Positions 7,893 to 40,192 of a stretch of 64,000 bases of DNA are shown here, one piece after another. Under the pieces are notes generated by a model that was given only the letters and a program-made list of their open reading frames with translations, was not told the origin of the DNA and searched no databases. Made by a program: the position numbers and the translations under genes. Numbering within the stretch: the stretch's first letter is position 1; each line of letters begins with the position of its first letter. Source of the stretch: Eledone cirrhosa (Eukaryota); assembly GCA_964016885.1 (NCBI GenBank), contig OZ024742.1, positions 14,260,001 to 14,324,000 of the forward strand, read 5' to 3'.

Positions 7893-7986
7893 AAATTTAA
7901 TATAGAAATGGCTTCTACAGGACTAGAACTGTTTCCTTCGAATGAAACAGTTCTAGTCCTGTAGAAGCCATTTCTATATTAAATTT
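7893..7986. repeat. Perfect 43-bp-arm palindrome
   Basis: aaatttaatatagaaatggcttctacaggactagaactgtttc + 8-nt spacer + exact reverse complement. Related to 29236-29355. Confidence 0.9.
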
Positions 7987-8267
7987 GTCGTTTACACTCT
8001 ACTAATGTATTGAGTACCTTACTTTCTGTGGTTACCCCCAATTGAACCTGGGATTCTCATATAAATGAGAATTGGCAGAGTTGTTTCAGTGTTGGATAAA
8101 ATACCTGGGTATTTGTTCTGGATTACTGCAGTCTGAGTTTGAATCTTTCGTGGGTCAACTTTGACTTTCATCATTCTTTCAGGGTTGATAAGTAAAGTAC
8201 TGATCTGTTTACATGGATGTGAGGGTTGTATATCAAATAATATATGTTTACTAATGATAATCTTTAG

Positions 8268-29120: not shown

Positions 29121-29235
29121 ATATGTATGTGTGTATATGTATATATATATAATATGTAGATTCCCAAATTGTGTCAGAGGTGACCACAGTTTAAAAAGAT
29201 ACTTAATATGTTGGTAGAGTATATGCATCTTTATT

Positions 29236-29355
29236 ATATATAGAAATGATTTCTACAGGATAAGAACTGTTTCATTCATATGAAATCACCATTCCTGATG
29301 ATTGCATACAAATGAAATAGTTATAGTCCTGTAGAAGTCATGTCTAAATATATAT
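29236..29355. repeat. Imperfect palindrome with a hammerhead-like core
   Basis: Arms match 7893-7986. CTGATGA at 29295-29301 is followed by ...GAAAT...GTC. Confidence 0.75.
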
Positions 29356-29492: not shown

Positions 29493-29648
29493 GAAGCCAG
29501 AGGAAGGGAGAGCCAAAACAAGTGATATTTTCAGATGGTATTAGACCTGGTGGTGATCTAACTGAAGAAGTTGATCATCCTCAAGAGACACGGATACCAC
29601 CAAGACGGATTGGCCGTGTACAGAAAAAAGTAGAAAGAATAACTCAGG
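29493..29648 (+). CDS. ZFYVE9: SARA exon D with RVxF-type PP1c docking motif
   Basis: ttcag| acceptor, G|gttagt donor. GSQRKGEPKQVIFSDGIRPGGDLTEE... (KxVxF). 156 nt, phase 1/1. Confidence 0.9.
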
Positions 29649-29693: not shown

Positions 29694-30146
29694 TGTAATA
29701 TTAGAATTTGGATTTAATGCTCTGAAATAGCGATATATATGTGAAGACAAACATAGAATATTCGAAAATATTCTGTATGTTTATAATAAACATTTGAAGA
29801 CCTAATCGCTATAGAATAGAATACGTCACGTATTACAATTTGAGATTCTCGATAAAAGCAAGGGAAGTAACCTACGCGTTTCATTCTCATTAGAAATCAT
29901 CAGGATTACATATCCAATGCTTTTATCGAGAACGACACAGCTAGAGACTTATAGAATACTTAGCTGTGTACAGGAACTGGTTTGAAAGAGCGGTTGCCGG
30001 TCCGGCAGAAATTAGAATTTGGATTTAATGCTCTGAAATAGCGATATATATGTGAAGACAAACATAGAATATTCGAAAATATTCTGTATGTTTATAATAA
30101 ACATTTGAAGACCTAATCGCTATAGAATAGAATACATGTAATATTA
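29694..30146 (-). mobile_element. Retrozyme / Penelope-pLTR-like non-coding insertion (311-nt unit + 125-nt redundancy)
   Basis: 29700-29824 is identical to 30011-30135. TGTAATATTA is duplicated at 29694-29703 and 30137-30146. The hammerhead lies inside. Confidence 0.75.
29867..29909 (-). ncRNA. Type I minimal hammerhead ribozyme
   Basis: Minus strand reads GUAAUC-CUGAUGA-U-UUCU-AAUG-AGAA-U-GAAAC-GC-GUA-GGUUAC. The core is intact, stem I is 6 bp, stem II is 4 bp and stem III is the palindrome ACGCGU. Predicted cleavage after GUA, between 29873 and 29872. Confidence 0.85.
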
Positions 30147-30164: not shown

Positions 30165-30642
30165 AAAAGCATCGAGTACACACTGTAAAGTGGTCGTTTT
30201 GGTGTCACAATAAAAAAACACCCAGTACACACTGTAAAGTGGTCGTTTTGGTGTCACAATAAAAAACACCCAGTACACACTGTAAAGTGGTCGTTCTGGT
30301 GTTGTGACACCCAGTACACACTGTAAAGTAGTCGTTCTGGTGTCACAATAAAAAAACACCCAGTACACACTGTAAAGTAGTCGTTTTGGTGTCACAATAA
30401 AAAAACACCCAGTACACACTGTAAAGTAGTCGTTTTGGTGTCACAATAAAAAACACCCAGTACACACTGTAAAGTAGTCGTTCTGGTGTCACAATAAAAA
30501 AACACCCAGTACACACTGTAAAGTGGTCGTTTTGGTGTCACAATAAAAACACAGTCATCTGATCTGACTTGTCTGACAACAGGACAACTCGTCTAACTCA
30601 TGCTAGCGTGGAAAAATGGACGTTAAACGGTGATGATGATGA
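30165..30642 (+). repeat. About 48-bp tandem array (about 8 copies) in an RTE-type 3' tail
   Basis: Unit aaaaaacacccagtacacactgtaaagtggtcgttttggtgtcacaat, ending in gacgttaaacggtgatgatgat. Confidence 0.9.
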
Positions 30643-38090: not shown

Positions 38091-38122
<32 letters not shown>

Positions 38123-38140
38123 AAAAAGATGAAATCGAAA

Positions 38141-39665
38141 ATGCAACTGCAGTCTTATTTAAAAAAAAATATATATATTTATTTGGTTCCTTTACTGGTT
38201 TCGCAGTTCTTCTGCTTTTCAAAAGTAGAGTTGAGATGGAGGGTCTGTGGTTTTTCTCACATCTGGTTGGTCTTTGAATGTTACTTGTTTTATATGAAAA
38301 AAAGTGGCTCGAAACACCAGGTTTTTAGAGAAGTAATCTGATTGGTTGGTCAATAATTATAATAAATTTCGCGCCAGTTCGCGTTACAAAGTTCTTCAAA
38401 CAAGTGTGTGTATATGTGGGGGGGGGGGTCTCAGATTGTTTTTCATATATGAGTGTTTGAATTTCTTTTTACTTAAAAAAAAGGGGCTCACGAAGGCTTT
38501 TTTTTAATAAACGTAATTTGATTGGTTATAAATGAAATTATGGCTGTCTTGTGAACAAGTTTTCATTAAATTTTGCGCCCTTATTTGGAAATCCATTCTG
38601 TAGCCTTTTTAGAGAATTTTATGATAAGTAAAAGATAATGGTCAAGAGAAATGGGATGGGAGAGTTGTTCTGGTTCAGTGAATATGGTTAGTTCGCTGGG
38701 GTGTCAGAATTCAGATTTTCTATTGAAATAAAGAAAGTAAAGATATGTATGTTTATTTGTGTGCTTGTGTGTGTGTGTATTGGAAGATGATTCTATTAGT
38801 AGAAATGGGAGAGGGAGTTGTGTGTGTGTGGGGGTTGTTATGTGTGTGCATGGGTGTTATGTGTGTGTGGGAGTATGGTTAGCATGTTAAGATGAAGAGA
38901 ATATATATATATATTGTGTGCGTGTGTGTAGGAAAATGATTCCTTTAGTAGGAATATTTTTGAATGAACATATTTTCCTTACTTATTCATATTTGTTTTG
39001 TTGTATTGTCAGCGCAAACGTATGTTAAGGTTTATTTAGTTCGGGTTTTTATTTTCTAAAGTAGCAGGTGTTATGTATGTGTGTATGTGGCTGTTTGGAT
39101 GGTTAGCATGTTATGGTGTTGTCATAATGTATATTAAACCATATTTAATGCTGGTCTATATTTTTGAATAAACATATTTTCCATATTTATTCGTATTTGT
39201 TCTATTGTCTAAAAAGGCTACAGAATAGATTTCCAAATAACGGCGCAAAATTTAATGAAAACTTGTTCACGTGACAGCCATAATTTCATTTATAACCAAT
39301 CAAATTACGTTTATTAAAAAAAAAGCCTTCGTGAGCCCCTTTTTTTTAAGTAAAAAGAAATTCAAACACTCATATAAGAAAAAACAACCTGAGCCCTCCC
39401 ACTTGTTTGAAGAACTTTGTAACGCGAACTTGCGCAAAATTTATTATAATTATTGACCAACCAATCAAATTACTTCTCTAAAAACCTGGCATTTCGAGCC
39501 ACTTTTTTCCATATAAAATAAGTAACATTCAAAGACCACCAGATGAGAGAAAAACCACAGACCCTCTATCTCAACTCTATTTTTGAAAAGCAGAAGAACT
39601 GCGAAACCGGTAAAGGAACCAAATAAATATATATATATTTTTTTAAAATAAGACTCCAGTTGCAT
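38141..39665. mobile_element. Foldback element with about 460-470-bp inverted arms
   Basis: 38141-38613 is the approximate reverse complement of 39208-39665; GT-rich spacer; each arm carries a hammerhead-like motif. Confidence 0.8.
39580..39615 (+). ncRNA. Hammerhead-like motif, U3-A8 core variant (mirror copy on the minus strand at 38190-38225)
   Basis: UUU-UUGAAAA-GCAG-AAGAA-CUGC-GAAAC-CG-GUA-AAG. Stem II is GCAG/CUGC, stem III is the palindrome ACCGGU, and stem I is only 3 bp. Confidence 0.5.
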
Positions 39666-40192
39666 CTTTTTTTCTTTATACTTTCACTCGTGTAGGACAC
39701 CTCGTTTATTTTTCATTTTGTAAAAAAAACCTCACTTTCTAATAATATATATATATATATATACATATAACTGTTATAATGTTCAACATTTTTTTGCATG
39801 TTAATAGGAAGTAAAGATTATTGTTTAAGTCTTCTATGCAATATCTATTTATCTGTCTGTCTGTCTTATTAAAAGACATGTGAACCCTATAATCAGGCTT
39901 AAACAGTTTCAATGCTAAAATAGTAAAATTACCATTTTAGCATTGAAATAATTTAAGCTTTAAATGATATCTACATTCTACTTTCTTTAAAGAATGGCAT
40001 ACTAAGTAAAATAATGGTCTTACTAGTCTCATGTAATAAGATCCCCCCCACCCCTCTCTCTCTTTATATATTTAAACAATATACCAAAAAATCTTTTTCC
40101 TATATAAAGTTGAGAAACTAAACTATTAATATGTACATCATCATCATCATTTTTACATCTGCTTTTTGATGCTTGCATGGGTTGTACATACA

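Follow-up and report, generated by a model that had tools for sequence, protein, structure and literature searches.

The window, i.e. the whole stretch of 64,000 nucleotides of Eledone cirrhosa DNA that was analysed, holds part of a host gene and a short non-coding insert in one of its introns. The exon at 29493-29648 shares 90-94% identity with ZFYVE9/16 proteins of Argonauta and Octopus; Pfam gave no match within its 52 amino acids. A total of 12 tblastn exon matches were distributed along the window, all on the plus strand, which places the host gene on that strand. The insert is located in the intron following this exon, and its hammerhead strand runs antisense to the pre-mRNA; for this reason, cutting of the host transcript by the ribozyme of the insert was rejected. 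The following features were delimited (family B is an older sibling family described below):

29493-29648, plus strand: exon of SARA/endofin (ZFYVE9/16), identified by protein identity and tblastn
29694-29703, no strand: left target-site duplication TGTAATATTA, from sequence comparison
29704-30136, minus strand: single-armed retrozyme insert of 1.4 units, the minus strand being the RNA sense
29704-29742, minus strand: Penelope-type "tail" between two fixed reverse transcription (RT) start sites (unit positions ~5-9 and ~43-45)
29718-29812, minus strand: terminal domain, structured, enclosing the second start site; 76% identity with family B
29846-29860 paired with 29918-29932, minus strand: 15-bp stem bearing the hammerhead, supported by the fold and by four compensatory pairs relative to family B
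29867-29909, minus strand: minimal type I hammerhead, identified by core motif, covariation and core conservation
30011-30135, minus strand: second exact pass over unit positions 1-125, ending at the cDNA stop point, from the 125-nt repeat
30137-30146, no strand: right target-site duplication TGTAATATTA, from sequence comparison

The exact 125-nt repeat described in the initial annotation was recovered at 29700-29824 and 30011-30135 with a spacing of 311 nt, and it extends on neither side. Likewise, the insert is bracketed by 10-bp TGTAATATTA repeats and is free of substantial reading frames, as had been claimed, the longest ORF being 58 aa. Since the final ATTA of the left duplication also matches unit positions 1-4 (a 4-nt microhomology), the insert was delimited as 29704-30136, of which 30136 is one untemplated A at the right end. 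The distance of about 45 bp to the exon given earlier holds for the start of the target-site duplication, 45 nt beyond the exon end at 29648, whereas the insert itself begins 55 nt downstream. The copy was considered young because it has two diagnostic changes in common with locus L031. A 49-bp minisatellite (30175-30553) begins 29 nt past the right duplication, and kin repeats are abundant in sequencing runs.

The type I hammerhead and the 15-bp stem beneath it, both previously read on the minus strand, were confirmed. In the order of that strand the hammerhead consists of stem I GUAAUC, CUGAUGA, a stem II whose base holds a U.U pair, GAAA, the palindromic stem III ACGCGU, GUA and GGUUAC, with cleavage predicted after GUA, at 29873/29872. 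The fold of the whole unit (z = -5.9) was matched in stability by none of 100 shuffled sequences and that of the hammerhead with its stem (z = -6.7) by none of 200. Cofolding of two hammerhead copies predicted intermolecular pairing through the palindrome. The Rfam scan returned no family above threshold (HH9 matched at 17 bits, cut-off 52), and the ribozyme call therefore rests on the core motif, covariation and core conservation. Across 112 loci the CUGAUGA core varied at N7 in 11 loci and at each other position in at most one. In one A-versus-B comparison with family B, 8 of the 24 named pairs (long stem, stems I and II) were changed on both sides, while the controls gave 0/500 for shuffles and 1-3 for slid pairings. 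The N7-biased variation and the eight compensatory pairs were counted in favor of putative selection on the ribozyme. In locus L172 the cleavage-site nucleotide (unit position 174) is changed from A to G in all five passes of both arms, and a probably non-cleavable variant was thus inserted nonetheless.

Searching the unit against the genome, as the initial annotation had proposed, revealed multi-copy, dispersed and tandemly multimeric relatives. For the window unit 523 candidate places were found; 39 of them were scored, and the matches listed had 96-100% identity. A 23-mer of the stem-and-hammerhead region had 17,976 exact matches genome-wide (control: 0). At approximately six matches per locus this amounts, by rough extrapolation, to a few thousand loci. 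With these matches and the multi-unit arrays, the reading of a young, dispersed, target-primed and hammerhead-bearing retrozyme-like element with tandem multimers could be upheld. The family units are non-coding and 310-312 nt long, and an arm holds as many as 22 of them. The unit length of 311 nt fits the spacing in the window, but most relatives have units of 312 nt (window subfamily) or 310/311 nt (major subfamily). The latter, younger subfamily is ~94-95% identical to the window unit, accounts for most 23-mer matches and for 15 of the first 16 loci in genome order. The variant pair 55C+75C occurs in both subfamilies (L243, L255-L258), which suggests, on sequence grounds, recombination between them. 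Units close to the family were also observed in sequencing runs X4, X5 and X6, labelled as three other organisms, with 1-11 differing letters over 48-340 nt; one 342-nt contig of run X4 returns to a point 312 bases earlier in the unit sequence, as a tandem DNA repeat would too.

Two further hammerhead families were encountered. Family B (L163:1521-2020, L179-L208) has a ~315-nt unit, 1,906 candidate places, 92-95% identity among its copies and a tail of ~34 nt, and has the terminal domain and the overall layout in common with the window family. Its hammerhead differs by a longer stem III and a GUU triplet; a U.U pair is likewise found at the base of stem II. Family C is represented in the window by two decayed two-armed inverted inserts (29174-29336 and 7896-8054), 74-91% identical to L115. 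Its stem II is nearly that of the window family and the remainder differs. Young copies, with 582 candidates, are numerous and continue into a longer element.

The metazoan non-LTR retrozymes are defined by a short non-coding unit of ~170-400 nt in tandem, and the octopod family possesses every sequence-level trait of this class. As in the retrozymes described by Cervera and de la Pena (2020; PMC7229834), as far as the available text goes, the units are ~300 nt long, AT-rich, tandem, without ORF and highly self-paired, carry one type I hammerhead each and co-occur with Penelope elements. Even the U.U at the base of helix II recurs in the axolotl HHR_Amex2 of that study. As to the possibly undescribed viroid-like RNA family of the initial annotation, the retrozyme class itself has been described in that paper. 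Circles and cleavage have been shown for those retrozymes; for the octopod family both are predictions from genome sequence. Mobilization by Penelope elements was only proposed there, and the main text, in the parts available, makes no mention of octopus, cephalopod, inverted or target site, nor does it present fixed starts or inverted arms.

The anatomy of insertion was analysed for 119 loci, comprising 39 best matches, 60 loci selected by an (AT)n-junction pattern (drawn from 100 listed matches of its 124), 16 in genome order and 4 selected by a variant. They have 224 arms: 115 begin within unit positions 1-17, another 100 at apparent positions 24-38 and the remaining 9 elsewhere. The apparent start at 34 reflects (AT)n microhomology and the true start lies at ~43-45, so that 215 of the 224 outer ends fall at two fixed sites ~38 nt apart (unit ~5-9 and ~43-45). 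In 88 of the 119 loci a long-end arm faces a short-end arm in inverted orientation, 20 loci are single-armed and 11 are of other forms. (AT)4+ adjoins 187 of the 215 ends; 60 of the 119 loci had been chosen through the (AT)n-junction pattern, but the 16 loci taken in genome order agree with this count. The inner ends, i.e. the stop points, are scattered over the unit, and short overlaps or hairpin stems are frequent at the arm junctions. Classical L1 twin priming was rejected, since the second start has a fixed position at which the first arm does not end.

The two fixed starts, the inverted arms and the (AT)n targets together closely match the "tail" signature of Penelope elements. The permuted start points that the initial annotation had predicted for a circular template were therefore not borne out, since priming is restricted to two fixed sites and the variation lies in the stops, while mobilization by Penelope gains support. 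A Penelope protein was reported to cut and extend both strands of AT-rich DNA, with RT starting at two adjacent internal sites that delimit a 30-40-bp tail (Frangieh, 2024; PMC11167929, available portions). An inverted truncated Penelope copy with a tail on one end was described by Craig (2021; PMC8557442, in part). In these accounts the endonuclease-positive (EN+) Penelope-like elements resemble the octopod family in having two neighboring internal RT starts, a tail at one end, an inverted truncated copy, cutting and extension of both strands and AT-rich or microsatellite targets. The octopod element differs in having no ORF and a single 310-312-nt unit that is repeated at most 22 times per arm.

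[quoted passage not shown] Their ORFs include two of 938 and 1096 aa, and their ends are (TA)n-flanked. The tail of the youngest Neptune-like family measures 60 nt versus 38 nt in the retrozyme family, which was counted against it. The helper would be a Neptune-like element, and the terminal domain at 29718-29812 would be the region recognized by its enzyme. None of 50 Penelope loci (among 10,596 candidate GIY-YIG places), searched by blastn and nhmmer, carried the terminal domain as its own end; the nhmmer profile and blastn found only separate family B and C inserts there. The loci L070 and L115 were rejected as partner elements and represent independent (AT)n insertions. In the window, a two-armed, (TA)n-flanked remnant of the young Neptune-like family was observed at 38122-39741, with an ORF end near 39137-39208, its short end to the left and its long end to the right, and in each arm a degenerate hammerhead-like motif with a UUGAAAA core and palindromic ACCGGU. 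Unrelated hammerhead motifs also occur near Penelope loci (L105:103, L106:7986, L109:8568-9562, L079:25, L111:2858), that of L109 being repeated three times at ~500-nt spacing.

Having the same tail, inverted arms and targets, the insert might be an ordinary truncated pseudo-LTR (pLTR) fragment of an autonomous Penelope element, the more so as retrozymes have been reported to derive from pLTRs. This reading is largely refuted and was given very little credence. The arms loop back into the same unit, the nhmmer hits beside Penelope loci being only separate family-B inserts, and in 0/119 loci was an array continuous with an RT and GIY-YIG ORF. Fixed ends attached to such an ORF, the initial annotation's mark of a pLTR fragment, are thus absent from the sample; the nearest Penelope protein match lies at least 206 nt away, and the 14 of 119 loci with any such match involve differing families.

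Amplification at the DNA level, with the repeat in the window as a local duplication or assembly artefact, is the most improbable of the explanations weighed and already refuted as the primary mechanism. It leaves the dispersal, the fixed outer ends, the inverted arms of one haplotype, the target-site duplication and the conservation of the catalytic core unexplained. The artefact considered in the initial annotation is likewise contradicted by a dispersed family with fixed ends and a target-site duplication. Some turnover of this kind is indicated in older arrays, where shared variants form contiguous runs.

The fixed-start signature itself fits a circular template or an uncleaved multimer alike. 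The 1.4 units plus target-site duplication had been taken as the sign of a circle; a single copy shows no circle, and the case rests instead on family-wide variant patterns, from which a circular template appears probable. Two sites differ between loci in 40% and 52% of pairs; across the arms of one locus, discordant pairs at these sites numbered 0/366 and 0/319 (99 loci). Within 17 loci of the major subfamily only 5 of 37,686 bases deviated over both arms; the same loci differ from each other at 3.3 sites on average and comprise ~12 haplotypes, short loci being partly covered. A variant of L150 had 19 matches genome-wide, all within L150, in every unit and in both arms. Two of the three genome-wide tests of private variants bear on neither template: 13 loci carry the L165 variant, and 752 units carry the L244 pair.

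The arrays run seamlessly through the cleavage site. Inner ends near it numbered 3/186 (4.2 expected), deviations at the site 7/3938 versus 403/146714 elsewhere, and no minority indel was found at unit positions 168-178 across 493 passes. As the cDNA shows neither stops nor errors there, a cleaved linear monomer as template was excluded, and a test for template jumping across the site gave no support for it in the retrozyme family of the window.

Penelope-driven insertion could alternatively have copied a linear multimer, transcribed from a homogeneous parent array and left uncleaved, with circles as by-products. Internal initiation on unprocessed RNA has been demonstrated for an anole Penelope element (PMC11167929, in the text available), where unprocessed RNA was the main substrate and insertion in vitro did not need hammerhead cleavage. 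The fixed starts and the seamless cleavage site would be explained equally well, and haplotypes common to many loci as well as mosaic arrays fit parent arrays. However, each haplotype would need a long homogeneous parent, and the assembly contains none for the 19-unit L150 variant. Sharing of unit-specific variants in register is also predicted, yet those common to several loci (33 versus 26 expected, range 19-34) did not exceed chance. Moreover, linear copying can only shorten arrays, and yet arms of 11-22 units exist; editing would be expected per unit and not fixed across all units. We regard this explanation as unlikely, although less so than the others set beside the circular template.

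A-to-I editing is high in cephalopods. In RNA sense, A>G changes made up 16/53 locus-fixed alleles versus 15/234 singletons (p = 8e-6), an excess as expected if one edited molecule had been read repeatedly. Among the fixed alleles A>G did not differ significantly from U>C (16 versus 9, p = 0.23), and the A>G bias could also have arisen through selection favoring stems that tolerate G.U.

The older 312-nt arrays are mosaic: 105/937 within-locus pairs disagree at position 296, variants are linked in L054, L057 and L119, and contiguous runs of shared variants as well as three arm-restricted variants occur. Under a pure single-circle template these arrays need later gene conversion or mixed templates. 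Within arrays of one haplotype group T, A and G all occur at position 296, which lies at the foot of a palindromic hairpin, and position 210 changes recurrently in four loci (loci concerned at the two positions: L034, L035, L054, L055, L057, L059, L137, L138). A mutational hotspot, a modified template base or gene conversion may underlie this mixing; a modified or damaged template was not established, the linked variants fitting gene conversion too.

The many haplotypes among very young loci and the apparent subfamily recombinants (55C+75C in both) would also suit RNA-to-RNA, viroid-like replication in addition, with the arrays as snapshots of an RNA population. No ribozyme of second polarity was seen, however, and repeated retrotransposition with bottlenecks explains the diversity, which makes such replication highly improbable.

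The window copy was accordingly read as a young non-coding retrozyme RNA that a Penelope-like endonuclease and RT would have copied into AT-rich DNA, probably from a circular monomer (probability roughly 0.7, judged from sequence data). The observations behind this reading are the dispersed tandem arrays, the two fixed starts, the inverted arms, the (AT)n targets, the clonal arrays and the conserved hammerhead core. In the proposed sequence of events an array would be transcribed, neighboring minimal hammerheads would pair via the palindromic stem III and release monomers, and a host ligase would circularize them. A Neptune-like RT/GIY-YIG protein acting in trans would then bind the terminal domain and cut both target strands, cDNA would be primed at two internal sites, one per strand, with a variable number of rounds each, and the two cDNA ends would be united by microhomology. 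That the arrays directly record in the genome a rolling-circle, double-ended form of target-primed reverse transcription (TPRT) of one ligated, sometimes A-to-I-edited circle of 310-312 nt was given an even chance.

For the window copy, cDNA synthesis would have begun at the left, primed at the long-end site, aided by the 4-nt target microhomology, and continued for 1.4 units before an untemplated A was added and the cDNA joined to the far end of a non-microsatellite target. Only the long-end cDNA would have been retained, and its joining at the far target end would have left the legible 10-bp duplication. Having one hammerhead only, which is antisense to the host pre-mRNA, the copy was considered a probable dead end, release of a monomer being probably impossible with one dimer-dependent hammerhead.

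The retrozyme class, the proposed link to Penelope and the circle hypothesis are already in print. The minimal hammerheads of Penelope elements have a palindromic helix III as in the octopod family, and for them dimer-dependent cleavage was described and ligated circles were proposed as template for more-than-unit cDNA (Cervera and de la Pena, 2014; PMC4209133, partial text). The circular template is a hypothesis in that paper, on which the octopod genomic patterns bear. Retrozymes were considered non-autonomous Penelope derivatives by Li, Clavereau and Pollet (2026; bioRxiv 10.64898/2026.07.22.740005, in the portions available). The same class of partner is concluded here; the evidence there was co-occurrence in vertebrates and pLTR homology, whereas the octopod evidence is the anatomy of insertion, a homologous pLTR not having been found. 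Tandem growth was attributed to unequal crossover in that preprint. A literature search covering few subscription journals found no report of the retrozyme family in cephalopods, and within the same scope no tail or inverted-arm analysis of retrozymes.

The window copy itself is minor, yet it is among the few with a legible target-site duplication. The enzyme moving animal retrozymes and the role of circular RNAs as true templates have been proposed in the cited papers and not demonstrated there. The octopod family supplies mapped starts and a substrate of 310 nt; intact Neptune-like ORFs reside in the same genome, and very young clonal arrays number in the thousands. The questions of helper and template are therefore directly testable. 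If the proposed mechanism is true, the multimers of retrozymes and the inverted-arm-plus-tail layout of Penelope elements would be explained together, and the family would provide a minimal RNA substrate for reconstitution.
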